Both the position numbers and the translations under genes were made by a program. This document shows positions 676 through 35,403 of a stretch of DNA of 64,000 nt, in pieces. Every line of letters starts with the position of its first letter. The first letter of the stretch is position 1. A model generated the notes under the pieces. That model did no database searches, was not told where the DNA came from, and saw only the letters and a program-made list of their open reading frames with translations. This DNA is from Nocardioides sp. Lineage in GTDB: Bacteria; Actinomycetota; Actinomycetes; Propionibacteriales; Nocardioidaceae. The stretch is from NCBI RefSeq assembly GCF_041600255.1, contig NZ_JBFIKK010000001.1:564-64563 (forward strand). The letters are read 5' to 3'.

Positions 676-1962
676 GTGAGCCACGACGACGACCAGCCCA
701 CCCAGCCGCTCAGCTGGGTGCCGCCCACGACGCAGCCGCTGCCGGGCAGCTGGTCCGGGTTTCCCCCGGCGGGACCGGCGACGCAGCAGGTCACGCAGCA
801 GCCGGGTCAGCACCCGGGGCAGCACCTTGGGCCGAACGGGGCGCCGTCAGGACGATCGGCCCGAGGCGTGCCCGGCTGGACCTGGCCGGCCGTGGCCGTC
901 CTCGCCCTGGTGCTGGGCCTGGTCGGCGGGGTCGTCGGCGGGCTCACCTACGACACGGTGACCGAGGCGCAGAACCCGGGCGCAGTGAGCTCCGGTCTCA
1001 ACGGCGTCGACACCGTCTGGGTGCCGCCGCTGGAGCAGGACAACGGTTCGATCGCGGCCGTGGCGCAGACCCTGCTGCCCAGCACCGTCCAGATCGCCGC
1101 CGAGTACGACGGGGACTCCGCCGGCGCGACCGGCTCGGGCTTCGTGCTCGACCGGCAGGGTCACGTGATCACCAACAACCACGTGGTCGCGCAAGCGGCG
1201 GCCGACGACGGCCTGATCGAGATCGTCGACCACGACGGCAACCGCTACGAGGCGTCGGTCGTCGGTCGCAGCACCGTCTACGACCTGGCCGTGCTGTACG
1301 CCGACGGCGTCAAGCAGCTCGAGCCGGCCGCCCTGGGCGCGTCGCAGACGCTGCGGGTGGGGGAGTCCGTGGTCGCGTTCGGTTCCCCGCTCGGCCTGAG
1401 CTCGACCGTCACCTCCGGCATCGTCAGCGCTCTGCGCCGACCCGTCACCACGGGCGACGAGAACAACGAATCCTCCTACATCAACGCCGTGCAGACCGAC
1501 GCCGCCATCAATCCGGGCAACTCCGGCGGGCCCCTGGTGAACCTTCGCGGCCAGGTCGTGGGCGTGAACTCCGCGATCGCCACCACCGGTGGCGGGCGTG
1601 CCGAGGCCGGCAACATCGGTGTCGGGTTCGCGATCCCGATCGAGCAGGTGCGGATCACCGCCGACCAGATCCTGCGCACCGGCAAGGCGCGCTACCCGGT
1701 GATCGGTGCCAAGGTGCGCACCGGCCGCGACGACGGCGTCGGGGCCGAGGTCGACGAGGTGCTGCCCGGGACCCCGGCCGAGAAGGGCGGGCTGGTCAAG
1801 GGCGACATGATCACCGAGGTCAACGGTGAGCGGGTCACCGACGGGATCGCGCTGATCGTCTCGATCCGCTCGCACCAGCCGGGAGAGACCCTGGAGTTCA
1901 CCGTGCAGCGGGGCGGCCGCGAACTGACGATCTCGGTGGAGCTGGGCTCCGAGGTCGGCTGA
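676..1962 (+). CDS. htrA: HtrA/DegP-like membrane-anchored serine protease with PDZ domain
   Basis: TM helix, TNNHVV, DLAV, QTDAAINPGNSGGPL, C-terminal PDZ (PAEKGGLVKGDMITEVNG). Start GTG 676 is uncertain. Confidence 0.95.
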   Translation: MSHDDDQPTQPLSWVPPTTQPLPGSWSGFPPAGPATQQVTQQPGQHPGQHLGPNGAPSGRSARGVPGWTWPAVAVLALVLGLVGGVVGGLTYDTVTEAQNPGAVSSGLNGVDTVWVPPLEQDNGSIAAVAQTLLPSTVQIAAEYDGDSAGATGSGFVLDRQGHVITNNHVVAQAAADDGLIEIVDHDGNRYEASVVGRSTVYDLAVLYADGVKQLEPAALGASQTLRVGESVVAFGSPLGLSSTVTSGIVSALRRPVTTGDENNESSYINAVQTDAAINPGNSGGPLVNLRGQVVGVNSAIATTGGGRAEAGNIGVGFAIPIEQVRITADQILRTGKARYPVIGAKVRTGRDDGVGAEVDEVLPGTPAEKGGLVKGDMITEVNGERVTDGIALIVSIRSHQPGETLEFTVQRGGRELTISVELGSEVG

Positions 1963-2193
1963 TCAGGAGTCGCTCTCGACGTACGGGTGCTGGTCCACGA
2001 AGGTGCGGGTCTCGGCGTACATCCGCTGGATGAACTCCTCGAGCTGGCTCGACTCGACCCGCCACTGACCCCGTCCGCCGATCTTGATCGCCGGCAGGTC
2101 GCCGCGGCGGACGAGCGCGTAGACCTGCGCGCTGGAGGTGTTGAGCACCTCGGCCACGTCGGCGAGGGTCAAGAAGCGTGGGCTGCCGGACAT
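1963..2193 (-). CDS. Small excisionase-like HTH (HTH_17) DNA-binding protein
   Basis: FLTLADVAEVLNTSSAQVYALVRRGDLPAIKIGGRGQWRV pattern. Confidence 0.9.
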   Translation of the reverse strand: MSGSPRFLTLADVAEVLNTSSAQVYALVRRGDLPAIKIGGRGQWRVESSQLEEFIQRMYAETRTFVDQHPYVESDS

Positions 2194-2308
2194 GGCCCCA
2201 TGTTCGCACCTTCCACCGGCTGATCCGGTTCACCCACTCCGGACGCTGTGGAGGACGTCCTGTGGACCGCCGTGTGCCTGCGCCGGGTCCGGCCTGCATG
2301 ATGGGCGC

Positions 2309-2944
2309 GTGGTCAGGAACTCGGGAACTCCCACCTCATCGTCGACTCCACCTGCGCTGCGGGTGCGCGCGCCCGGCTGGCGCGACCCCCGCCTATGGGT
2401 CGGCCTGCTCGTCGTCACGCTCTCCGTGGTCCTGGGCGCACGCGTCGTCGGTGCTGCCGACCGGACGATCGAGGTCTGGTCGGTCGCCGGCGACCACGTC
2501 GAGGGCGACGTGCTGGCGCCGGAGGACCTCGTCGTCGCGCGGGTGCACCTCGCCGAGGCGTCCGCGGGCTACCTGCGGGCTCAGGAGCAGCTCCCGGCCG
2601 TGATCAGGCTGACCCGGGCCGTGGCGGACGGCGAGCTGCTGCCGCGGGCGGCCGTGGGGGCCGAGGAGAGCGGCGACGAACGGCTCCGGCTCCCGATCGC
2701 CGTCGACGCTCACCTGGTGCCACCGTCGGTGGCCGCCGGGTCGGTCGTGGACGTCTACCTCGAGTCGGGTCGACCGGCGCTGTCCTCGGTGCCGGTCGTG
2801 GAGTCCCCGGCCCTGGACGCCGGCTTCGCCGCCACCGGGCGCCGACAGCTGGTGCTGGCCGTGGACGAAGGCGCGGCCCATCGCTTCTTCCGCCTCCTGG
2901 GCTCGCTCGACCAGCCCACCCTCACCGTGGTCCGGCGGGGATGA
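2309..2944 (+). CDS. SAF-domain membrane protein (CpaB/RcpC-like)
   Basis: N-terminal TM after WRDPRLWVG, SAF-like VWSVAGDHVEGDVL...LTRAVADGELLP, C-terminal VGSVVDVY motif. CATGAT -10 box just upstream of GTG 2309. Confidence 0.75.
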   Translation: MVRNSGTPTSSSTPPALRVRAPGWRDPRLWVGLLVVTLSVVLGARVVGAADRTIEVWSVAGDHVEGDVLAPEDLVVARVHLAEASAGYLRAQEQLPAVIRLTRAVADGELLPRAAVGAEESGDERLRLPIAVDAHLVPPSVAAGSVVDVYLESGRPALSSVPVVESPALDAGFAATGRRQLVLAVDEGAAHRFFRLLGSLDQPTLTVVRRG

Positions 2945-4236
2945 GCGTGCCCGCACGTCCGGTGGTGGTCCTCGTCGTCGCCAGTGGCGCCGCCTGGGAG
3001 TCCGACGCCCTGGGCCGTCTGAACGAGGAGCGCGGGATCGTGGTGCTCAAGCGGTGCGTGGACGTCGCCGACCTCCTCGCCGCCTCCAGTGCCGGCCAGG
3101 CCGACGTGGCCGTGCTGGGTCTGGAGTCGCCCGGGCTCGACCGCTCCGCCATCGACCTCCTGCGCCGGCACGGCGTCCGGCCCGTGCTGGTGCTGCCGGG
3201 CACGGTCGACGAGGAGCCGGCCCGGTTGCGGGCTGCGAGGATCGGCGTCTCCGCCCTGGTCCCGGCCACCGATCTGACGGGTCTCGTCGCCGCCGTGATC
3301 GGCCCCGGGGACGACCCGGCGTATCCGGCCGGTGCGGAGCCGCCCGCCCGAGCGGACCCGGACCCGTCCGACGCCGCCGGGCCGCGCGGCCGGGTGATCG
3401 CCGTGTGGGGTCCGGCCGGAGCTCCCGGCCGGACCACCGTCGCCGCCGGCCTCGCGGCCCTGCTCGCGGCCCGGGGGAGGGCGACCACGCTGGTCGACGC
3501 CGACCCGTACGGCGGGTCCGTGGCGCAGCAGCTGGGCATCCTGGACGAGGTGTCCGGACTGCTGGCGGCCGCTCGCCTCGCGGGCACCGGCGCGTTCGAC
3601 GAGCACGGGCGCACCCTGCCGCGCCGGATGAACAGCCGGCTGGCCGTGGTGACCGGGCTGCCGCGGGCCGACCGGTGGGTGGAGGTCCGCCCCGGCGTGC
3701 TCGAGGCCCTGCTGGACGATGCCGCCGGCCGCGGGGACGTCCTGGTGGACACCGGCTTCAGCATCGAGGACGAGCCCGGCGCCGAGTTCGGCGCCCGGCC
3801 CGGCCGCAACCACCTGACGCTGACGGCGCTGGCGAGGGCCGAGGAGGTGGTGGTCGTGGGCAGCGCCGATCCGGTCGGGCTCTCCCGACTGGCCCGGGGT
3901 CTCGTCGAGCTCCGCCCGGTCGTCGAGGGCACCCCGGTACGCGTGGTCGTGAACCGGATGCGGCCGTCCCTGGGCTGGTCGGAGAAGGAGATCGCCGGCA
4001 TGGTCACCGGCTTCCTGCGGGTGGCGGACGTGCACTTCCTGCCCGAGGACCGCGCCAGCGTGGATCGCCAACTGCTCGCCGGTCAGACCCTGGCCGAGGC
4101 CGGGGATTCGGCGCTGGGGCGCGCGCTCGACCGGGTGGTCGACGTGGTCGCTCCGGGCTCTCTGCCCTCGCCGGCGGACCGCGCCGCCCGTCGCCCGCTC
4201 AGGCGGCGAACAGCAGGTACAGCCCACCGACGGTGA
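2941..4236 (+). CDS. CpaE/TadZ/Ssd-like MinD-family P-loop protein with degenerate N-terminal receiver domain
   Basis: ATGA overlap with the SAF gene; VIAVWGPAGAPGRTT deviant Walker A; LVDADPYGG; LVDTG; receiver-like N-terminus. Confidence 0.8.
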   Translation: MSVPARPVVVLVVASGAAWESDALGRLNEERGIVVLKRCVDVADLLAASSAGQADVAVLGLESPGLDRSAIDLLRRHGVRPVLVLPGTVDEEPARLRAARIGVSALVPATDLTGLVAAVIGPGDDPAYPAGAEPPARADPDPSDAAGPRGRVIAVWGPAGAPGRTTVAAGLAALLAARGRATTLVDADPYGGSVAQQLGILDEVSGLLAAARLAGTGAFDEHGRTLPRRMNSRLAVVTGLPRADRWVEVRPGVLEALLDDAAGRGDVLVDTGFSIEDEPGAEFGARPGRNHLTLTALARAEEVVVVGSADPVGLSRLARGLVELRPVVEGTPVRVVVNRMRPSLGWSEKEIAGMVTGFLRVADVHFLPEDRASVDRQLLAGQTLAEAGDSALGRALDRVVDVVAPGSLPSPADRAARRPLRRRTAGTAHRR

Positions 4237-5542
4237 AGGCGATCATCGCGACGAGCAGGGAGAGTTGGCCGGTCAGCTGGTGGCGCTTGGGCAGCAGCTG
4301 GATCGCCCGTTCGTGGGCGGCGACCACGCCCACCACGTGTCCGAGCACCACCGCGACCACCTTGAAGTTCGCCAGCAGGGTCGGGTGGTAGGAGAGCCAG
4401 TAGTTGACGCTCCAGTCGCCGGTGCCGAGCAGGTTGCTGCCGTCGCCCAGCGGGTCGCTGGCCTGGATCAGCGTCTGCTGGCCGACCTCGAAGAGGTAGG
4501 TCAGGTAGTGGGCGAAGATGTAGCCCACGACGATCGGCACCACCGAGTGCGCGAAGAGGTCGGGCAGGTCCACCCGCCGGGTCGCCTTGTCCACGCCGGT
4601 CAGCATCGAGCCCAGGGCGAAGACCAGCCCCACGCCGGCGCAGAAGACCAGCAGCGCGAGGTTGTTGGCGACGTCCGCGAGCCAGCCGTGGTCCCGGAAG
4701 GCCGGGGTGTTCTGCAGGAAGCGCACCCAGGCGTTGGAGTCCCGGAACGAGTCGAAGGCGGTGCTCCCGAACAGCACGCTGACCACGGCGAGCAGGCCCG
4801 GCCCCACCTCGACGGTGTCCAGGTTGGCCTGCGGGCTACGGAGCACGAGCATGCCGTCGCGGCGCCCCCAGACCGACATCTTCGCGACCAGGCTCGAGTA
4901 GACCTCGAACGGGTCGCCGCGCTCGTAGAAGCGGCTGCCGAAGAGGGCGCCGCCCAGCAGCATCACCGCGAGGTACACCGCGCACCAGAGCCGGACGGCA
5001 TCCAGCTCGGTCTTGTAGGGGAAGACCAGCTCGAACCACACGAACGCGAAGAGCCCGAGGGCCGCCGGCCAGTAGCCGAGTCGCTCGGGGTAGGTGAACA
5101 CGCCGCGGTCGGGGTCGCTGCCCGACAACCGGGCGAAGAGCAGGTTGATCGTCCGGACCGGGCTGATGGCCTTCCAGACCGGTCCGAGCAGCAGCGAGAG
5201 CGGCACCAGGCCGACCCACCACCAGACGAAGAACATCCCGAAGAACGGGTTGGTGAGCAGGTCCTGGCCGAGCAGGGCCGCGACGGCGGCGTACGCCGTG
5301 ATCGCGAGGCCGAGGGCACGCAGCAGCATTCGGAAGGCCGCCGAGTCGACGATCCGGGTGGTGCCCGGAAGGACGACCCCGCCGGCGGCTCCGGCATACC
5401 GCGGCGAGCGCCAGGCGACCGCCAGCACGATGAACGAGACCGTGAGCGCCGCGACAGCGCCGGCGATGGCCAGCTCGGGGGAGAGCGGGAGGTCCTTGGC
5501 GCCGCCGATGCCGTGGGCCCCGGTCAGCCGGTCGGGCGACAC
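4199..5542 (-). CDS. Conserved polytopic membrane protein (AHGIGG..DLP family), function unknown
   Basis: About 10 hydrophobic helices; N-terminal AHGIGGAKDLPL; His-containing motifs FAHSVVPIVVGYIFAHYL and GHVVGVVAAHER. Confidence 0.8.
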   Translation of the reverse strand: MSPDRLTGAHGIGGAKDLPLSPELAIAGAVAALTVSFIVLAVAWRSPRYAGAAGGVVLPGTTRIVDSAAFRMLLRALGLAITAYAAVAALLGQDLLTNPFFGMFFVWWWVGLVPLSLLLGPVWKAISPVRTINLLFARLSGSDPDRGVFTYPERLGYWPAALGLFAFVWFELVFPYKTELDAVRLWCAVYLAVMLLGGALFGSRFYERGDPFEVYSSLVAKMSVWGRRDGMLVLRSPQANLDTVEVGPGLLAVVSVLFGSTAFDSFRDSNAWVRFLQNTPAFRDHGWLADVANNLALLVFCAGVGLVFALGSMLTGVDKATRRVDLPDLFAHSVVPIVVGYIFAHYLTYLFEVGQQTLIQASDPLGDGSNLLGTGDWSVNYWLSYHPTLLANFKVVAVVLGHVVGVVAAHERAIQLLPKRHQLTGQLSLLVAMIAFTVGGLYLLFAA

Positions 5543-6035: not shown

Positions 6036-7511
6036 ATGACCGACCGGCTCCGACCGCGGGACCTGGCCTTCCTCGCCGCGGAGTCTCCCTCGACGCCTGC
6101 GCACAACGCCACGGTCGAGATCTTCGACCCCGGCGACTCGGGGTTCGACTACCGGCGTTTCCTCGACCTCGTGCAGGACCGCATCTCCTTCGCGCCCCGC
6201 TACCGCCAGCGGCTGCAGGCCGTGCCCGGGCGCCTCGCGAACCCGGTCTGGGTCGACGACGTCGACTTCGACCTGAGCTACCACGTACGCCGCTCCGCCC
6301 TGCCGCGACCCGGGTCGCTCGACCAGCTGCGCGAGCTGGTCGGCCGGATCGTGTCGCGCCCGCTGGACCGCAACCACCCGCTGTGGGAGATGTACTTCGT
6401 GGAGGGGCTGGCCGACGGCCGGGTCGCCCTGCTCTCCAAGTCCCACCAGGCCCTCGTCGACGGCGTGCACACCGTCGACCTCGGCCAGGTGCTGCTCGAC
6501 GTCACGCAGACCCCGAAGGAGCTCGGCGGCGACCAGTGGCGTCCGCGCAGCCCGGTCAGCCCCCTGCAACTGCTCACCGGCGCGGTGCGGGACTCGGTGA
6601 CGAGCTCCACCACGACGCTCGACACCGTGCGCAGCAACGCCGAGGCGGTCCTGCGGACGGTGGAGTCCGCCAGCCACCGCACCAACCGGGTCGTCAGCGC
6701 CCTCACCGGCAGGGACCCCGAGCGTGAGTCGCCGATCAGCGGCACGCTGTCCCAGCAGCGCCGGATCGTCGTGCTCCGCACCGACCTGGCCGACTACCGC
6801 ACGGTCCGCGACGCCCACGGCGGCACCGTCAACGACGTCATCCTCGCCGCCGTCACCGGAGCGTTGCGGGGCTGGCTGATGACCCGCACCGAGTCCCTCG
6901 GCGGCCTGCGCCAGCTGCGCGCGGTGGTGCCGGTCTCGGTGGTCGACAAGGAGCTCGAGGCGACCTCGCTGGGCAGCCAGATCGCTGCCCACTTCGTCGA
7001 CCTGCCGATCGGCGAGGCCAGCCCGGTGGTCCGCCTGCACCAGGTGTCCTACTCGTTCCAGGTGCACAAGGAGACCGGTCGCGGCGTGGCGGCCAATCGG
7101 CTGGCGGGGATCGCCGGGTTCGCGCCCACGACGTTCCACGCCATCGGCGCCCGGGTGGCCGCCGACGAGGCCCGCCGGCGCGGCTTCCAGCTCAGCGTCA
7201 CCAACGTGCCCGGCCCGCAGTCGCCGCTGTACGCCGCCGGCGCCCGGATGACCGAGACCTACCCGGTCCCGCCGCTGCTGCCCGGGCACGCCCTGGCGAT
7301 CGGCGTCACGTCGTACGACGGTGGCGTGTTCTACGGCATCACCGCCGACCGGGACCTGCTGCCCGACGCCGACCTGCTCGGGCCCTGCCTGCGCGAGGCG
7401 TTGGACGAGCTGCTCGACACGGCGACCGGCGCCCGACCGAAGGTTCCGCGCGGTCGCAAGCGGGTCCCGGCCAAGCCGCGCGCGACGGCGCGCAGGACGG
7501 TGACGGACTGA
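6036..7511 (+). CDS. Wax ester synthase/diacylglycerol acyltransferase (WS/DGAT, Tgs3-like)
   Basis: DLAFLAAE, RPLDRNHPLWEMYFVEGL, KSHQALVDG, TVNDVILA, VTNVPGPQ. Confidence 0.95.
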   Translation: MTDRLRPRDLAFLAAESPSTPAHNATVEIFDPGDSGFDYRRFLDLVQDRISFAPRYRQRLQAVPGRLANPVWVDDVDFDLSYHVRRSALPRPGSLDQLRELVGRIVSRPLDRNHPLWEMYFVEGLADGRVALLSKSHQALVDGVHTVDLGQVLLDVTQTPKELGGDQWRPRSPVSPLQLLTGAVRDSVTSSTTTLDTVRSNAEAVLRTVESASHRTNRVVSALTGRDPERESPISGTLSQQRRIVVLRTDLADYRTVRDAHGGTVNDVILAAVTGALRGWLMTRTESLGGLRQLRAVVPVSVVDKELEATSLGSQIAAHFVDLPIGEASPVVRLHQVSYSFQVHKETGRGVAANRLAGIAGFAPTTFHAIGARVAADEARRRGFQLSVTNVPGPQSPLYAAGARMTETYPVPPLLPGHALAIGVTSYDGGVFYGITADRDLLPDADLLGPCLREALDELLDTATGARPKVPRGRKRVPAKPRATARRTVTD

Positions 7512-27979: not shown

Positions 27980-28007
27980 TCAAGGTCGGCTCCTGGGCCA
28001 CCGATGT
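27980..28007 (+). promoter_or_regulatory. Putative sigma28 (FliA/WhiG)-type promoter TCAAG-N15-ACCGATGT
   Basis: Both boxes and the 15-nt spacing recur exactly at 28249; resembles the TAAA(G)-N15-GCCGATAA class. Confidence 0.55.
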
Positions 28008-28063
28008 GTCCGGTGGAGGGAGGCAGTCGATGCCTCCGGCGGAACAGGTTCTGGGAGGTCCTG

Positions 28064-28219
28064 ATGACGCAGGCACAGTTGCTCGACATGCTCGATCTGG
28101 TCGCGATGAGTCTCTGCTCCTCGTGTGGCGAGGCCGTCGGCCAGTTCCGTGGAGATCCGTCGCTGTGGGTGCACCTGCCCAGCGACGACGGCTCCTGGCT
28201 CGGGCCGATCCGGGACTGA
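28064..28219 (+). CDS. 51-aa CxxC...WxH microprotein, copy 1
   Basis: MTQAQLLDMLDLVAMSLCSSCGEAVGQFRGDPSLWVHLPSDDGSWLGPIRD; GGGAGG RBS; paralogous to 28338-28511. Confidence 0.75.
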   Translation: MTQAQLLDMLDLVAMSLCSSCGEAVGQFRGDPSLWVHLPSDDGSWLGPIRD

Positions 28220-28248
28220 TCGCCGTGACCACCTTTTTACTTTCAGAT

Positions 28249-28276
28249 TCAAGGTCTTCGGGCTGGGGACCGATGA
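28249..28276 (+). promoter_or_regulatory. Putative sigma28 (FliA/WhiG)-type promoter TCAAG-N15-ACCGATGA
   Basis: Second copy, identical boxes and spacing, 62 nt upstream of microprotein 2. Confidence 0.55.
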
Positions 28277-28337
28277 ACAGGGTGAGCGGGGAGCACACCA
28301 GCACCCCACCGGGAGCCATGTCCGTAGGGGAGTCCTG

Positions 28338-28511
28338 ATGACTCAGGAGAAGCTTGTCGAACTGCTTGATCTGACCCAGGTCAGCGTCTGCGCCGTCTGC
28401 GGCCAGGCGGTCGCCCAGTCCAAGCGTGACGAGACCGTGTGGCTGCACATCCCGAACGGCGGCTGCGAGTGGCTGTTCCCGCCGCACCGGGGTGTGCGCG
28501 AGCGTCACTGA
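28338..28511 (+). CDS. 57-aa CxxC...WxH microprotein, copy 2
   Basis: MTQEKLVELLDLTQVSVCAVCGQAVAQSKRDETVWLHIPNGGCEWLFPPHRGVRERH; GGGGAG RBS; 21 of 48 aligned residues identical to copy 1 without gaps. Confidence 0.75.
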   Translation: MTQEKLVELLDLTQVSVCAVCGQAVAQSKRDETVWLHIPNGGCEWLFPPHRGVRERH

Positions 28512-28518
28512 CGCCCCC

Positions 28519-28569
28519 GCGACGTGACAGCGACGTCCTCGCGACGCGCTGACGACGGCCCCTCGACAG
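28519..28569 (+). promoter_or_regulatory. Five heptamer direct repeats at 11-bp period (putative SARP operator)
   Basis: GCGACGT-N4-GCGACGT-N4-GCGACGC-N4-ACGACGG-N4-TCGACAG; CGAC cores at 28520, 28531, 28542, 28553, 28564. Confidence 0.7.
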
Positions 28570-28634: not shown

Positions 28635-29795
28635 ATGTCCGATCCAGGCTCGAAGGGTGACTTCGCCACTCCGTCGGGCGACGCCGCGCAGTCCGACGAA
28701 ACGGCCGGCACCGCGTTCTCGACGCCGCCCGACTCGTCCAGCGCCGCCGAGCAGGCGGCCTTCACGCTCGACGCCCAGTCGATGGGCGGGGTGAGCACCC
28801 AGCTCCTCGACACGCACGCCGCCCTCGAGGACGCCCTGCACCGTCAGGAACGCTCGACGAAGGGCGCCCACAGCATCGAGTCGCTCAGCGACCTCGGCGG
28901 CATGGCCAACGTCCAAGGTGTGGCCATCGGGCTCGGTTCGCCCGGCGACGGCCCTCCCGGCGAGCCGACGCTGAACGTCTACGTCGCCGAGCGGACCTCG
29001 GTCGAGCGGGTGCGCGAGGTGGTGGTCGACGGCCTCGGCGTCCAGTCCGCGGGCGACATCAAGATGACGGTCCGGCGCTCCGGCCAGTTCGACGCCCAGC
29101 CGCACCGGTTCCGGATCCGACCGGCTCCCGGCGGAGTCTCTGTCGGGCACGTCAAGGTGACCGCGGGGACGCTCGGCTGCCTCAGCATCGGACGCAGCTC
29201 GCCGCGCAACTCGCGACTGTTGATGCTGTCCAACAACCACGTCCTGGCGAACTCCAACAACGCCGTGTACGGCGACAGCATCATCCAGCCCGGTCGCTAC
29301 GACGGTGGTTCGCACCCCGGCGACCAGGTGGCGATCCTGGAGCGATTCGTGCCCATCCAGTTCGGCGGCGGCACCAACTACGTGGACGCCGCCACCGGGT
29401 GGTGCTGGCCCGACCGGGTACGCCGCGAGCTGATCTACCCCTACGGCAGCGGGTTCGCGTTGTACCGGATCGGCAGTAACCCGGTCTACCCGCAGCTCGG
29501 CTGGCTGGTCGGGAAGTCGGGTCGGACCACCCAGCTGACCCAGGGCCGCATCGTGTCGGTGAACTGGTCCGGTTGGGTCAACTACGGGGTCGGGTACGGC
29601 TGGTTCGTCGGCCAGATGGTCGTGCAGGGCGGCAGCGGCGACTTCTCGGCAGGCGGTGACTCGGGTTCGGTGATCTGGAAGTGGGAGTCCGGGCTGCCTC
29701 CCACGGGCTTGCTCTTTGCCGGCGGTGGTGGCTACACGATCGCCAGCCCGATGCCGTGGGTGACCTATCTGCTCGACATCAACCTCTACACCTGA
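28635..29795 (+). CDS. Cytoplasmic trypsin-fold (S1, NAL1-like) serine protease with N-terminal regulatory domain
   Basis: GGVSVGH..TAGTLGC, LSNNHVL (His), YVDAA (Asp), GGDSGS (Ser), GKSGRTT, GLLFAG; no signal peptide; AAGGGAG RBS. Confidence 0.88.
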   Translation: MSDPGSKGDFATPSGDAAQSDETAGTAFSTPPDSSSAAEQAAFTLDAQSMGGVSTQLLDTHAALEDALHRQERSTKGAHSIESLSDLGGMANVQGVAIGLGSPGDGPPGEPTLNVYVAERTSVERVREVVVDGLGVQSAGDIKMTVRRSGQFDAQPHRFRIRPAPGGVSVGHVKVTAGTLGCLSIGRSSPRNSRLLMLSNNHVLANSNNAVYGDSIIQPGRYDGGSHPGDQVAILERFVPIQFGGGTNYVDAATGWCWPDRVRRELIYPYGSGFALYRIGSNPVYPQLGWLVGKSGRTTQLTQGRIVSVNWSGWVNYGVGYGWFVGQMVVQGGSGDFSAGGDSGSVIWKWESGLPPTGLLFAGGGGYTIASPMPWVTYLLDINLYT

Positions 29796-29904
29796 GGCGG
29801 TGCGCACCGTGCTCGTCCGGGCGGCAACCCAGGCTTGGTCCGCCCGGTCGGCGCTAGCATCGAACCGGGCTTGCTTGTCCACGGCCGCAGGGAGGTGATG
29901 GTCC

Positions 29905-30237
29905 GTGACGGACTTCGAGGATCCGCTCCAGGGTGGCGAGGACGCTGCCCTTCCGCACCGCCCACCGCCGTCTGGTGCCGCGTCCGCCGAGGATGAGCTC
30001 CTCGAGCGTCACCGGGCGGACCTGCTCACCGTGCCCGGCGTGACGGCCGTATGGTCCGGGCTGACCTCGACGGGGGCGGTTGCCGTCTTCGTCGGCGTCA
30101 CGGATCCGTCGGCACGCGACCGGCTGCCCCGCTCGCTGGAGGGCCTGCCGGTGGAGGTGGTCGACGTGCCCGGCGGGTTCGTCGCCCTGGCCGACGGTGA
30201 CCGGCCCGCCGAGCCACCCCCGTCGGAGTGTCAATAG
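29905..30237 (+). CDS. Small protein resembling a stand-alone NAL1-type protease N-terminal domain
   Basis: LLTVPGVTAVWSG...AVFVGV...LPRSLEGLPVEVVDVPGGFVAL; GGGAGG RBS. Confidence 0.7.
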   Translation: MTDFEDPLQGGEDAALPHRPPPSGAASAEDELLERHRADLLTVPGVTAVWSGLTSTGAVAVFVGVTDPSARDRLPRSLEGLPVEVVDVPGGFVALADGDRPAEPPPSECQ

Positions 30238-30349: not shown

Positions 30350-31168
30350 ATGGTCTCGCCCGGGGGCGCAGACACGTCGATCTCCGTGCTCGGCGGGTTC
30401 GACGTGCTCTCAAGGGGAGAGCGGCTGAACCTACCGGAGGCCGTGCAGCGCATGCTGGGCTTCCTGGCCGTGACCGGGAAGCGGCAGTGCCGCAGCACGG
30501 TGGCGGGCCGGTTGTGGCCGCTCATCGGTGAGGCGCGCGCGCAGGGCAACCTGCGCACCGCGCTCTGGCAGCTCCGGCGGACCGATCTCGACGTGGTCCG
30601 CGCCGTCCGGGACCAGCTCTGGCTCAGCGAGGACGTGGCGCTGGACTTCCGCGCGATGACCGAGCAGGCCTGGGGCGTGCTGAGTGGGGACCTCAGCGCG
30701 ACCGACGTTCTCGGCCTCTCGCTGCCGCTGTTCCAGGCGGATCTGCTGCCGGACTGGGACGAGGACTGGCTGCTGATCGAACGCGAACGACACCGCCAGC
30801 TGCGCCTGCACGCGCTGGAGGCCGTCAGCCACCGCCTGGTTGAGCTCGGACGACACGCCCTGGCAGCCGAGGCGGCGTACGCCGCGATCACGGTCGAGCC
30901 GCTGTGCGAGTCGGCCCACCGGACGCTGGCGCAGGTGTTCCTGGCCGAGGGCAATCCGACCGAGGCGCTGCGGCAGTTCGAGCTCTACCGCGCACTGTTG
31001 GACGACGAGACCGGGTACGGCCCGACCGACGCGTTCGTCGCGTTGATCACTGCGCCCAGGCGGCCCCGCGGGACCGAGGTCAGGCTGATGAGCTCCGGCC
31101 GCTGGCGGCCGCGGGACGCCGGCGGGCCGACCGGGGGTCGCCAGGTGACGAAGCCCGGCGGGCCGTGA
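30350..31168 (+). CDS. Small SARP/AfsR-family activator (wHTH + BTAD)
   Basis: ISVLGGF, AGRLWP...GNLRTALWQLRR, DLLPDWDEDWLLIERER, EPLCESAHRTL, GNPTEALRQF. Confidence 0.92.
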   Translation: MVSPGGADTSISVLGGFDVLSRGERLNLPEAVQRMLGFLAVTGKRQCRSTVAGRLWPLIGEARAQGNLRTALWQLRRTDLDVVRAVRDQLWLSEDVALDFRAMTEQAWGVLSGDLSATDVLGLSLPLFQADLLPDWDEDWLLIERERHRQLRLHALEAVSHRLVELGRHALAAEAAYAAITVEPLCESAHRTLAQVFLAEGNPTEALRQFELYRALLDDETGYGPTDAFVALITAPRRPRGTEVRLMSSGRWRPRDAGGPTGGRQVTKPGGP

Positions 31169-31271
31169 GCGCGCGGCGGCCGTTCTCCACAGATTGAACC
31201 CCGCCCTTGTCGGGTAGGGCCATGCCAGCACTACGGTGCTGACAGGAACCTCACTCGGGACAGGGACCGTC

Positions 31272-32525
31272 ATGGCCATCACGCATGCCGAGGCGCACGT
31301 CGCCTTGGTCGAGCAGCTCGACCACCACGTCCGCCTGCGGGTGCGCACCGAGGGTGTCGACCCCCAGCGGGACGCCGTCCTCGTCCGCCGGATCGCCGAG
31401 ACCGTGGTCCGCGACCACGACGAGCGCAGCCTGACCGGCGCCGTGGCGCCCGTCCGCGACGTCGACGCGGTCGTAGGGGAGCTCGTCGCCCGGGTCTCCG
31501 GCTTCGGGCCGCTGCAGCAGTTCCTCGACGATCCGGAGGTCGAGGAGGTCTGGATCAACGATCCGAGCCGGGTCTTCATCGCTCGCAACGGCCGGCACGA
31601 GCTCACCCATCTGATGCTGAGTGCCGCCCAGGTGCACGAGCTGGTGGAGCGGATGCTGAAGTCCAGCGGACGTCGGATCGACATCAGCCAGCCGTTCGTC
31701 GACGCGATGCTGCCCGAGGGCCACCGCCTGCACGTCGTGCTCGAAGGCATCAGCCGGGGGTTCTCGGCCGTCAACATCCGCAAGTTCGTGCTGCGCGCAG
31801 CCCGGCTCCAGGACCTGGTCGAGCTGGGCAGCCTCACCCCGCGAGCCGCCGCTTTCCTGGAGGCCTCGGTCCGGGCCGGCCTGAACATCCTGGTGGCGGG
31901 CGGTACCCAGGCAGGCAAGACCACCCTGCTGAACTGCTTGGCCGCCGCCATCCCGGGCGGCGAACGGGTGGTGTCCGCAGAGGAGGTCTTCGAGCTCCGC
32001 TTCCCGCACCCGGACTGGGTGCCGTTGCAGACCCGTCAGTCCGGGCTCGAGGGCACCGGCGAGATCAGGTTGCGGGACCTGGTCAAGGAGAGCCTCCGCA
32101 TGCGCCCGAGCCGGATCATTGTCGGCGAGGTCAGGGCCGAGGAGTGCCTGGACCTGCTGCTGGCCCTGAACTCCGGGCTTCCCGGCATGTGCACGCTGCA
32201 CGCCAACAGCGCCCGCGAGGCCTTGGTGAAGATGTGCACCCTGCCGTTGCTGGCCGGGGAGAACATCTCGGCGAAGTTCGTCGTTCCGACGGTGGCCGCC
32301 TCCGTCGACCTCGTCGTCCACCTCGGCGTCGACCACCACGGCATCCGCCGGGTCAACGAGATCGTGGGCGTCTCCGGACGGGTGGAGAACGACGTCATCG
32401 AGACCTCCCCGATCTTCGTCCGTGGGGGTGGGGAGCTTCGCCGTGGCGGTGGATTCCCACCTCGGCCCGAGCTCTACGAGCGCACCGGCACCGACGTCCT
32501 CCGGCTGCTGAACGAGTCGTCCTGA
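31272..32525 (+). CDS. tadA: Tad pilus assembly ATPase CpaF/TadA
   Basis: FGPLQQFLDDPEVEEVWIN, AGGTQAGKTT, LRMRPSRIIVGEVR, TLHANS. Start uncertain (31236-31272). Confidence 0.95.
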   Translation: MAITHAEAHVALVEQLDHHVRLRVRTEGVDPQRDAVLVRRIAETVVRDHDERSLTGAVAPVRDVDAVVGELVARVSGFGPLQQFLDDPEVEEVWINDPSRVFIARNGRHELTHLMLSAAQVHELVERMLKSSGRRIDISQPFVDAMLPEGHRLHVVLEGISRGFSAVNIRKFVLRAARLQDLVELGSLTPRAAAFLEASVRAGLNILVAGGTQAGKTTLLNCLAAAIPGGERVVSAEEVFELRFPHPDWVPLQTRQSGLEGTGEIRLRDLVKESLRMRPSRIIVGEVRAEECLDLLLALNSGLPGMCTLHANSAREALVKMCTLPLLAGENISAKFVVPTVAASVDLVVHLGVDHHGIRRVNEIVGVSGRVENDVIETSPIFVRGGGELRRGGGFPPRPELYERTGTDVLRLLNESS

Positions 32526-33379
32526 TGGGGGCGCTCGTCGGACTGGGCGTGGGGGTCGGCCTGCTGCTCGTCTGGTCGGCGTTCGCGCTGCCCCGACCGC
32601 CGCACGCGCCACGCGGACGCCTCGGAGGCCTGCAACGGCGGCTGGCCCGAGCCGGGCTCGCGCACGTCCCGCCCACCGGTCTGCTGTTGACCTGTGGGCT
32701 CCTGGCCCTGGTCTGCGCCGTCCTGGTCCAGGCGGTGTCGGGAACGGCGACCGTGTCGCTGGCGTTCGGTGTGCTCGCGGCGTACCTGCCGCTCGCGGTG
32801 ATCGATGCGCGCGGGCGCCGACGGCAGCGCGAGTTCGCGGAGGTCTGGCCCGAGGCGGTCGACAACCTGGCCTCCGCCGTGCGCGCCGGCCTCTCGCTCC
32901 CGGAAGCAGTCGTCGGACTGGCCGCTCGTGGGCCGGCACCGTTGCGGCCCGCGTTCGAGGAGTTCGGCCTCGACTACCAGGTGTCCGGCCGGTTCTCCGA
33001 AAGCCTGGACCGGCTCAAGGAGCGACTCGCGGACCCGGTCGGTGACCGGGTGATCGAGGGTCTCCGGATCGCCCGTGAGGTCGGCGGCGGCGAGCTGGGT
33101 CACCTGCTACGGAACCTCTCCGGCTACCTCCGCGACGAGGCGCACACCCGCGGCGAGCTCGAGTCGCGGCAGTCGTGGGCGATCAACGGGGCGCGCCTCG
33201 CCGTCGCGGCGCCGTGGCTCGTGCTGCTCTTCATGTCCCTGCAGTCCGAGGTGATCCACCGGTACGCCTCCTTCGGGGGTGCCGTGGTGCTCGCCGTCGG
33301 TGGCGCAGCCTGCGTCGTCGCGTACCGGCTCATGATGCGCATCGGTCGACTGCCGGTCGAGCAGCGGATCCTGTCGTGA
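32525..33379 (+). CDS. tadB: Tad inner-membrane platform protein TadB (T2SSF)
   Basis: WPEAVDNLASAVRAGLSLPEA, TM helices, coupled to tadA. Confidence 0.9.
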   Translation: MGALVGLGVGVGLLLVWSAFALPRPPHAPRGRLGGLQRRLARAGLAHVPPTGLLLTCGLLALVCAVLVQAVSGTATVSLAFGVLAAYLPLAVIDARGRRRQREFAEVWPEAVDNLASAVRAGLSLPEAVVGLAARGPAPLRPAFEEFGLDYQVSGRFSESLDRLKERLADPVGDRVIEGLRIAREVGGGELGHLLRNLSGYLRDEAHTRGELESRQSWAINGARLAVAAPWLVLLFMSLQSEVIHRYASFGGAVVLAVGGAACVVAYRLMMRIGRLPVEQRILS

Positions 33380-34296
33380 CGCCGGCCCACTGGGGCGCCC
33401 TCGCCGGCGGTTGTCTGGCTCTGGGAGTCCTGCTGTCCGGCTCCCGGATCCATGCGCTGCGGCGGCCGCAACTGCGCCTGCGGGTCCTGCCCTACGTCCG
33501 GGACCTGCCGACCGCGACCGGATCGTCCCCGGCCGTGGTGGCAACTCGCGGCGTCGTGGGACCGGCTCTGGCCGCGGCAGCGTCGACGGTGGAGCGGCTG
33601 GTGGGCGGCTCCGCCTCGGTACGCCGCCGGCTGCAGCGGGCGGGCCTGGACCGCAGTGTGCACGAGTTCCGGATCGAGCAGGTGATCTGGGGGGTGGTGG
33701 CCTTCGGTGCCGCCGCGGCCTACGGCGTCCTGCGATCGTTGTCGGACCCCGGGGCGGTCGTCTCGTCGGCGGTGCTCAGCTGCTTGGCGTTCGTCGGCGG
33801 CGTTCTCGCCCGCGACCATCACCTCACGTCGCAGGTGAAGCAGCGCGAGCGACAGATCCTCGCCGAGTTCCCGACGTTGGCCGAGCTGCTCGCCCTGGCC
33901 GTCGCCGCGGGGGAGAGCCCGGTCGGTGCGCTCGATCGCGTCGTACGTCGCAGCGGCGGCGTGCTGTCGCAGGATCTGGCCCAGGTGCTGGCCGATGTGC
34001 GGACCGGCGACCCGGTCGGGCCGGCGTTCGACCGGATGGCCTCGGCCAGCGGCCTGCCGCTGGTCTCGCGCTTCGCCCAGGGCATCGCGGTGGCCATCGA
34101 GCGGGGCACCCCGCTGGCCGACGTCCTGCACGCCCAGGCCGCCGACGTGCGTGAGGCGGGGCGCCGCGAGCTGATCGAGGTGGCGGCCCGTCGTGAGGTC
34201 CTGATGATGGTGCCGGTCGTCTTCCTTGTCCTCCCCGTGACGGTGCTGTTCGCGCTCTGGCCCGGCGTCGTCGGCCTGCACCTGACCACCCCCTGA
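33376..34296 (+). CDS. tadC: Tad inner-membrane platform protein TadC (T2SSF)
   Basis: EFPTLAELLALAVAAGESP, ERGTPLADVL, C-terminal MVPVVFLVLP. Confidence 0.9.
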   Translation: MTPAHWGALAGGCLALGVLLSGSRIHALRRPQLRLRVLPYVRDLPTATGSSPAVVATRGVVGPALAAAASTVERLVGGSASVRRRLQRAGLDRSVHEFRIEQVIWGVVAFGAAAAYGVLRSLSDPGAVVSSAVLSCLAFVGGVLARDHHLTSQVKQRERQILAEFPTLAELLALAVAAGESPVGALDRVVRRSGGVLSQDLAQVLADVRTGDPVGPAFDRMASASGLPLVSRFAQGIAVAIERGTPLADVLHAQAADVREAGRRELIEVAARREVLMMVPVVFLVLPVTVLFALWPGVVGLHLTTP

Positions 34297-34338
34297 TCGC
34301 TCCACCGCCCTGCCCTCTCGGAAGAACGGAACCCCTCC

Positions 34339-34539
34339 ATGAGCCACTTGATGCTCCTCGCCACCCACCTGCACCTGGCCGCGACCCGACGCCTCGAGCA
34401 CCGCGACGAGCGGGGGGACGTGCCCGGATGGGTGCTGATCACCGTGATGACCGCGGGGCTGGTGATGGTGATCTGGGGCGTGGCCAAGGGCGAGCTGTCG
34501 GCGATGTTGAGCGACGCGCTCGGCTCGGTACGTCGCTGA
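34339..34539 (+). CDS. flp: Flp-type pilin
   Basis: 66 aa, class III leader ending RDERG, followed by hydrophobic DVPGWVLITVMTAGLV; located in the tad cluster. Confidence 0.8.
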   Translation: MSHLMLLATHLHLAATRRLEHRDERGDVPGWVLITVMTAGLVMVIWGVAKGELSAMLSDALGSVRR

Positions 34540-34543
34540 GCTC

Positions 34544-34927
34544 GTGGGCGCCCGTCGCGACGACCGCGGCGCCGCGGTCGTCGACTTCGTCCTCGTCCTG
34601 GTGGTGCTCGTCCCGCTGTTCCTGGCAATCCTCCAGGTCGCGCTGGTCCTGCATGTCCGCAACACGCTGGCCTCGGCGGCCGCCGAAGGGGCGCGGTACG
34701 CCGCCACCGCCGATCGCGATCCCGCCGACGGAGCGTCGCGGACCCGGGAGCAGGTCAGGGGAGCACTTCCCGGCAGGTTTGCCGACGACATCTCTGCCAG
34801 ACACGTCCTCATCGGCGGCTCTCCGGCGGTCGAGGTGACGGTGCGGGCGGTCGTGCCCGCCCTGGGGCTGGGTGGACCGTCGATCGCGCTGGACGTCTCC
34901 GGTCACGCGATCGAGGAGACACCGTGA
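34544..34927 (+). CDS. tadE: TadE-like pseudopilin
   Basis: DDRG|AAVVDFVLV, AAAEGARYAA. Confidence 0.85.
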   Translation: MGARRDDRGAAVVDFVLVLVVLVPLFLAILQVALVLHVRNTLASAAAEGARYAATADRDPADGASRTREQVRGALPGRFADDISARHVLIGGSPAVEVTVRAVVPALGLGGPSIALDVSGHAIEETP

Positions 34928-35403
34928 GGCGGCCGCGTGGGCGGGCCGCCGGGCGGGCGGCTGGGCGAGCCGACGAGTCCGGCAGCGCGGTCGTCGAGTT
35001 CATCTGGCTGGGCCTGCTGCTGCTCGTTCCCCTGCTCTGGATCGTGATCTCGGTCTTCGAGGTGCAGCGCGGGGCCTTCGCGGTCAGTGGTGCGGCCCGG
35101 GCGGCGGGGAGGGCGTACGTGCTGGCGGCCGACGACGGGCAGGGCGAGCAGCGGGCTCGCGCCGCCGCGCGGCTCGCGCTGGCGGACCAGGGGCTGGCCG
35201 AGGACTTCGACCTGCGGGTGAGCTGTACGCCGTACCCCCAGGACTGCCATGCGGGCACCTCGGTGGTGACGGTGGTGGTCGCCTCCCGGGTGAACCTGCC
35301 GCTGCTGCCCTCGGCGCTGGGTGGCTCGTCGCCGTCGTTCGCCCTCGACGCCACCCACACGCTGCCGGTCGGACGGTTCCAGGAGCGTCATGAGCAGCGC
35401 TGA
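34924..35403 (+). CDS. TadE/TadF-like pseudopilin
   Basis: DESG|SAVVEFIWL, AARAAGRA. Confidence 0.85.
   Translation: MRRPRGRAAGRAAGRADESGSAVVEFIWLGLLLLVPLLWIVISVFEVQRGAFAVSGAARAAGRAYVLAADDGQGEQRARAAARLALADQGLAEDFDLRVSCTPYPQDCHAGTSVVTVVVASRVNLPLLPSALGGSSPSFALDATHTLPVGRFQERHEQR

Follow-up and report, generated by a model that had tools for sequence, protein, structure and literature searches.

The small gene at 29905..30237 on the forward strand of a 64,000-nucleotide stretch of DNA from Nocardioides sp. (the window; GC about 70%) encodes an ancient stand-alone paralogue of the non-catalytic N-terminal domain of the serine protease encoded directly upstream of it. This protease resembles rice NAL1, and small genes of the same family adjoin such proteases in a broad range of bacteria. 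The small protein most likely acts on the protease in trans.

The small gene, its family and its predicted fold

The gene starts with GTG, codes for 110 aa and is preceded, 8 nt 5' of the start codon, by the Shine-Dalgarno-like sequence GGGAGGTG (29890..29897, forward strand), recognized by direct reading of the DNA. Its GC content by codon position (.83/.54/.85) follows the coding pattern, and a 366-aa antisense ORF that overlaps it lacks codon GC of the coding type. Two metagenomic proteins are homologous to the product over its full length at 65-71% identity, and an AF2 model built from a 51-sequence alignment has a mean pLDDT of 83.6, with values of 93-95 over residues 31-90. Given the Shine-Dalgarno site, the codon-position GC, these close homologues together with others across phyla, and a confidently predicted fold with a core pLDDT above 90, the ORF is a real gene.

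An exhaustive profile search against 1.8 billion representatives recovered 235 relatives at E <= 1e-3, mostly of 70-135 aa, which sets the size of the family at a minimum of 235 representatives at 50% identity. A profile word search returned 155 further clusters, in which every named member is a 'hypothetical protein' and none carries a Pfam domain. Neither the small protein nor 51 members of its family had a meaningful model match in Pfam, NCBIfam or PADLOC, the small protein matching no N-domain model in Pfam, and a PDB sequence search with the family profile gave chance-level matches only (E >= 0.8). The result is a newly defined, previously unannotated and still unnamed protein family, whose members are conserved partners of NAL1-like proteases. 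Three matches of the profile were treated separately: the 584-aa repeat protein P0160 fits the Pfam model FeS_assembly_P and may be unrelated, and P0189 and P0234 were set aside as low-complexity repeats.

In the AF2 model the small protein comprises a helix (residues 28-41), two strands (46-53 and 59-65), a second helix (68-73) and a third strand (81-87), followed by the sequence GGFVAL. No regular structure is predicted for residues 1-27 (pLDDT 59-77), which form a moderately conserved tail containing G-E-D-A-A-L-P. Conservation within the family peaks in the folded core, which the AF2 model and the hhalign alignment to protease residues 82-155 place at residues 28-96 (29986..30192, forward strand). 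In 58 of 190 family members the chain stops one residue after the motif G-x-h-x-A, and in 147 within five residues of it. As many members stop 1-5 residues past this motif, the C-terminus of the family lies at a domain boundary; the protein of the window continues for a 15-residue tail.

Foldseek searches with the small model identified the alpha-lytic protease pro region (PDB 2PRO, 3PRO, 4PRO; Pfam PF02983) as its best fold match, chains 2pro, 3pro and 4pro accounting for seven of the nine best PDB matches (probability 0.98-1.0, E 0.01-0.09, 61-65 columns, rmsd 2.1-3.7 A). No NAL1 chain was among the best 50 matches, where a 65-residue core compared with 400-residue chains may rank poorly. 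We rejected homology to these pro regions at the sequence level, as hhalign of the small family against 22 Pro_Al_protease-bearing precursors from related genomes gave a Prob of 0.2% and Pfam no match. The resemblance holds at the fold level only and is weak, yet it is suggestive, because the alpha-lytic pro region is itself non-catalytic and has an S1 protease as its target, on which it can also work in trans, serving both as foldase and as inhibitor.

Relationship to the N-domain of the NAL1-like protease

The upstream gene (28635..29795, forward strand) encodes a NAL1-like cytoplasmic S1 serine protease of 386 aa, as evidenced by its catalytic residues and by both sequence and fold matches to NAL1. 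H202 (in SNNHV), D251 (in YVDAA) and S343 (in GDSGS) are invariant in the protease family, and no signal peptide was found in the protein. Rice NAL1 is its top PDB match by sequence (E 1.4e-5), and its 34 best Foldseek matches are all NAL1 (E 3.7e-11 to 2e-7, about 390-420 columns), the likeness to the rice protein (PDB 8PMM, 8PMG, 7Y77; PMC12012508) extending over the whole length at an identity of about 16-18%. The match to Pfam Nal1_C (16.7 bits, E 0.004) lies under the cut-off of 26.1. For the catalytic domain, alpha-lytic protease and the streptogrisins follow after NAL1 (Foldseek E about 1e-6), a relationship that hhalign supports for the C-terminal half of the protease with a Prob of 93%. 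The family comprises more than 6,000 clusters and has members in Actinobacteria, Beta- and Alphaproteobacteria, Cyanobacteria, Acidobacteria, Planctomycetes and Chloroflexi.

The chain of rice NAL1 is divided into an N-terminal region, an 'ATP-binding domain' (here ABD; residues 89-172) consisting of four strands, one curved helix and two ATP-holding loops, and the protease domain (PMC12012508). In the NAL1 trimer the ABD of each subunit packs against the protease domain of the next, and an N-terminal strand joins two trimers into a hexameric cage, the hexamer being needed for activity (PMC12012508). Like NAL1, the bacterial protease has a small alpha/beta domain directly before the catalytic domain. 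This N-domain spans residues ~82-156 (28878..29102, forward strand) and is predicted to fold as helix-strand-strand-helix-helix-strand (helix 81-92, strands 93-100 and 111-117, helices 123-133 and 137-141, strand 144-148); the AF2 model of the entire protease is of moderate confidence (mean pLDDT 65.9), reaching about 87-90 over most of residues 90-150 and less in the 101-110 loop. From its position in the chain and the full-length Foldseek alignments we infer that the N-domain probably corresponds to the NAL1 ABD.

It is this domain, as delineated by hhalign and AF2, that the small protein duplicates. A preliminary description of the window had claimed, from the letters of the DNA, that the small protein follows the same pattern as the protease N-domain. 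Between the two single sequences this does not hold, as the best BLASTP match has an E of 1.2 and falls outside the N-domain likeness; between family profiles it is significant. With alignments of 76 small proteins and 86 proteases, drawn from 84 loci, hhalign matched the small family to the protease family with a Prob of 94.4% (E 8.7e-8, 106 columns). When restricted to the core, it matched residues ~37-96 of the small protein to ~82-155 of the protease with a Prob of 95.0% (E 3.7e-8). The controls were clean: the Prob was 0.05% for the catalytic half of the protease and 0.1% for a reversed profile, and in 99 of 100 shuffles of the columns the score stayed at or below 17, the real alignment reaching 55.9. 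The lone outlier among the shuffles (133 bits over 5 columns) was inspected and set aside as a numerical artefact. The three motif pairs that had been singled out earlier, PGVTAVWSG/ANVQGVAIG, AVFVGV/LNVYVA and VPGGFVAL/RSGQFDAQ, coincide exactly with columns paired by hhalign. Direct HMMER searches with the small-family profile also hit protease N-domains, namely that of L066 from Pirellulaceae (E 4.9e-7) and those of a second protease subfamily described below (L090, E 4.9e-5; L089, E 1.5e-4).

The predicted structures agree with the profiles. The order of secondary-structure elements, helix-strand-strand-helix-strand, is equal in the models of the small protein and the N-domain, the latter being distinguished by two insertions: the Gly/Pro-rich loop GLGSPGDGPPGEP between strands 1 and 2, and an additional helix ahead of the final strand. 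The similarity of the profiles and the shared topology of the folds thus bear out the proposal that the small protein is a stand-alone copy of the N-domain. As to its age, with the small-family profile the convergent small proteins of the second subfamily score 1e-10 to 5e-13, as against about 1e-4 for the N-domains of their own proteases, which implies that the duplication is an old event that preceded the divergence of the subfamilies. The N-terminal tails of the small protein and the protease (F-x-x-P, E-x-A-A), when compared alone, gave a non-significant hhalign Prob of 0.3%; the idea that the small protein additionally copies the N-terminal exchange strand of the NAL1 type was kept as speculation only. 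The two loops of the NAL1 ABD hold ATP-Mg with the basic residues R120, R122, K123 and K139. In the small protein, the short loop GLTSTGA contains no basic residue and a basic cluster is not evident.

The domain is also seen in other settings. The small-family profile matches the apparently secreted S1 protease P0273 (E 1.2e-4 against 1.8 billion proteins), and P0246 has three N-terminal copies of the domain ahead of its protease domain; the motif LP..LEGLPVEV of the small protein, a putative NAL1-type motif according to the preliminary description, is also present in the N-domains of both. More generally, in P0273, P0246, P0150, P0175 and P0139 the ~65-residue domain occurs either as one to three N-terminal copies in apparently secreted S1 proteases or as two to four tandem copies alone, and some of the proteins that consist solely of such tandem copies carry signal peptides.

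Conservation of the gene pair and the proposed role of the small protein

The small gene lies directly 3' of the protease gene and on the same strand in 79 of 85 loci, of which 84 are assessable (the sequence of locus L034 ends too early for the small gene to be assessed). At least six phyla contribute to these loci, namely Actinobacteria, Proteobacteria, Cyanobacteria, Acidobacteria, Planctomycetes and Chloroflexi. With start codons of our own choosing, the gap between the two genes ranges from -4 to about 390 nt and is typically 10-130 nt; in the window it measures 109 nt, and promoter and terminator scans found nothing between the two genes. The genome of the window has a single copy of each gene. 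Of 81 relatives, five carry the protease, and exactly these five also have a stand-alone small gene next to it. The protease is present without a detectable small gene in five clear cases, three from Actinomadura (L043, L062, L072) and two from Streptomyces, which argues that the partner is not universally required. At the locus of Streptomyces sp. NBC_00090 (L048), where the partner gene was undetected, two NAL1-like protease genes lie in tandem (1750-3651 and 3812-5140), and a proteobacterial locus (L068) has two copies of the small gene (5239-5523 and 6605-6952) downstream of one protease. Clustering of all ORFs of the 84 loci revealed no third conserved gene, only synteny at the genus level. 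In four of the five carriers among the 81 relatives, which are same-genus genomes (L087, L088, L089 and L090), the protease belongs to the second subfamily and the small gene is convergent with it on the opposite strand; in L087, for instance, the protease gene ends at 2710 and the small gene occupies 2723-3016 on the reverse strand, so that the 3' ends are 12 nt apart. That the two genes stay neighbors despite this change of orientation speaks for a functional link independent of co-transcription.

As the small protein has no catalytic part and its gene is kept beside that of the protease, it most likely binds the catalytic domain in trans, although binding, its site and the direction of its effect are features that we infer. 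A trans-acting role fits the near-obligate adjacency across phyla in two gene orientations, and, by analogy, would fit what the N-terminal elements do in NAL1 (PMC12012508). On balance we lean toward a scenario in which the N-domain paralogue, once bound, controls assembly or activity of the protease, with negative regulation favored as the direction. The small protein would here be a minimal alpha/beta module of ~65 residues, with a helix, two strands, a helix and a strand leading to the G-x-h-x-A motif, and would end at the point where the chain of the protease passes from the N-domain into the catalytic domain. Its docking surface is probably the site on the catalytic domain that is normally filled by an N-domain, either the subunit's own or that of a neighboring subunit, and docking would set the assembly state of the oligomeric protease or access to its active site. 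Such a prodomain-like cap could keep the protease inactive until its removal. Several observations weigh against this reading: the protease already has an N-domain of its own in cis, which makes it less obvious why another copy would be needed; NAL1 is missing from the best 50 matches that Foldseek gave for the small model; the alpha-lytic pro region is matched weakly (E 0.01-0.035), with no support from profiles; and the ATP-binding loops of NAL1 probably have no counterpart in the small protein. That the protease gene comes first, followed by the small gene with its own Shine-Dalgarno site, is not by itself a sign of an inhibitor.

The direction of the effect is best discussed against the alternative that the small protein is an obligate subunit or activator in a hetero-oligomeric cage, where it would fill sites of the N-domain type or bridge two rings and be needed for active assembly. 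Strict co-occurrence is consistent with this, as is the close co-directional spacing in most loci, which suggests co-transcription, and NAL1 activity indeed needs higher-order assembly through N-terminal elements. However, the convergent arrangement in the second subfamily implies separate transcription, which would be unusual for stoichiometric subunits and points instead to a dosage under separate control; certain members of the protease family work in the absence of the small protein; and the small protein probably has no equivalent of the loops that in NAL1 stabilize the productive contacts between subunits of the trimer. For these three reasons we favor a negative regulator over an obligate structural subunit, and regard the latter as unlikely.

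A second alternative takes the small protein for a folding chaperone acting in trans after the manner of the alpha-lytic pro region, needed for folding of the catalytic domain and then degraded. It draws on the pro-region chains that head the Foldseek matches at probabilities of 0.98-1.0, and on the relationship of the catalytic domain to the alpha-lytic and streptogrisin proteases noted above by both Foldseek and hhalign. Against it stand the Foldseek E-values of only 0.01-0.035, the absence of profile similarity to Pro_Al_protease-bearing precursors (0.2%), and the fact that an N-domain with this fold is already part of the protease chain. The two systems further differ in that the alpha-lytic pro region is covalently attached in a secreted precursor and is auto-cleaved, whereas the small protein is cytoplasmic and has a gene to itself, and the NAL1-like protease retains its own N-domain. 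We judge this alternative improbable, and give a similarly low probability to the notion that the small protein is a substrate, decoy or adaptor, which is cleaved by the protease or brings substrates to it without regulating its assembly. The linkage of the genes would suit any physical partnership, and the disordered, moderately conserved N-terminal tail of ~27 residues (pLDDT 59-77) might be taken to speak for such a role; nevertheless, it has no specific support and conservation is strongest in the core rather than at a candidate cleavage site. Finally, despite the non-significant pairwise BLASTP result and the readiness with which high-GC DNA yields long spurious ORFs such as the antisense frame in the window, it is very improbable that the similarity is convergent or compositional, or that the ORF is a chance frame whose adjacency means nothing, in view of the cross-phylum conservation, the confident fold, the clean profile controls, the direct HMMER matches to N-domains and the co-occurrence of the pair in five of five cases among the 81 relatives.

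Negative regulation in trans by a copy of the N-domain would have parallels in other protease families. Stand-alone inhibitors homologous to propeptides are known in MEROPS family I9, where yeast PBI2 and Pleurotus POIA1 act on subtilases, and in family I29, where CTLA-2 and BCPI act on papain-like proteases. The small protein resembles these in being a free paralogue of the protease's own N-terminal non-catalytic domain, which in their case acts on the mature enzyme in trans; they belong, however, to other protease clans and folds, and for the small protein inhibition is a candidate role only. To our knowledge, none of the I9 and I29 inhibitors shares an operon with its target. The arrangement by which a free paralogue of the N-terminal domain acts on the enzyme is thus already known from these propeptide-like inhibitors, whereas the small family, its association with NAL1-like proteases and its occurrence in many phyla seem not to have been described before: full-text literature searches on NAL1 yielded no publication on NAL1-type proteases from bacteria, nor on a partner protein, and no free copy of the ABD is known for NAL1. 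Proteases of the NAL1 type are known almost only through the rice yield gene, while their bacterial relatives number in the thousands. That nearly all of the bacterial loci (79 of the 84 assessable) come with a dedicated small partner copying the assembly domain provides a concrete experimental handle on these enzymes. Likewise, the fold-level link that the models suggest between the NAL1 'ATP-binding domain' and the alpha-lytic pro region would bear on the evolution and control of this protease lineage.

A more far-reaching reading, which we consider possible though doubtful, is that the pair is a widespread and horizontally mobile two-gene switch, in which the small protein, as a dedicated prodomain-like cap, keeps a cytoplasmic NAL1-type cage from assembling itself, and the cap's loss frees the protease in response to stress, for suicide or for defence. 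Loss of the cap could come about through degradation or through separate transcriptional control. As in type II toxin-antitoxin systems, a potentially harmful enzyme is combined with a small partner in a two-gene module that is patchy among close relatives (5 of 81 genomes), but the small protein is without a DNA-binding part and the partner gene is downstream or convergent. The toxin-antitoxin analogy drawn in the preliminary description accordingly found no direct support, PADLOC having no match for the protease, the small protein or the neighboring SARP regulator. If the switch were true, the NAL1 protease family would gain its first known trans-regulator in the small protein, and the pair would represent a new kind of toxin-antitoxin-like module.

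Genomic surroundings of the pair

In the window the pair is followed by a gene for a SARP/BTAD transcriptional regulator (30350..31168, forward strand; BTAD E 1.9e-15), which belongs to the local context and lies outside the universally conserved unit, and then by a Tad/Flp pilus locus (31236-35400) that begins with a TadA-type ATPase at 31236. The same regulator gene, at 68% identity, also lies 3' of the pair in the closest metagenomic relative (L003); in Agromyces a BTAD regulator and a Tad locus lie 5' of it. The association of SARP and Tad genes with the pair is lineage-specific. The Tad/Flp locus adjoins the regulator, protease and partner genes both in the window and in Agromyces binzhouensis (L004:1-2709), with a different order of the blocks. 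On the other side of the pair, just 5' of the protease gene, the window contains a run of GCGACG-like heptamers with a spacing of about 11 nt (28519-28569), and two short forward-strand ORFs with CxxC motifs (28004-28511) are situated between a HAD-family gene and the protease.
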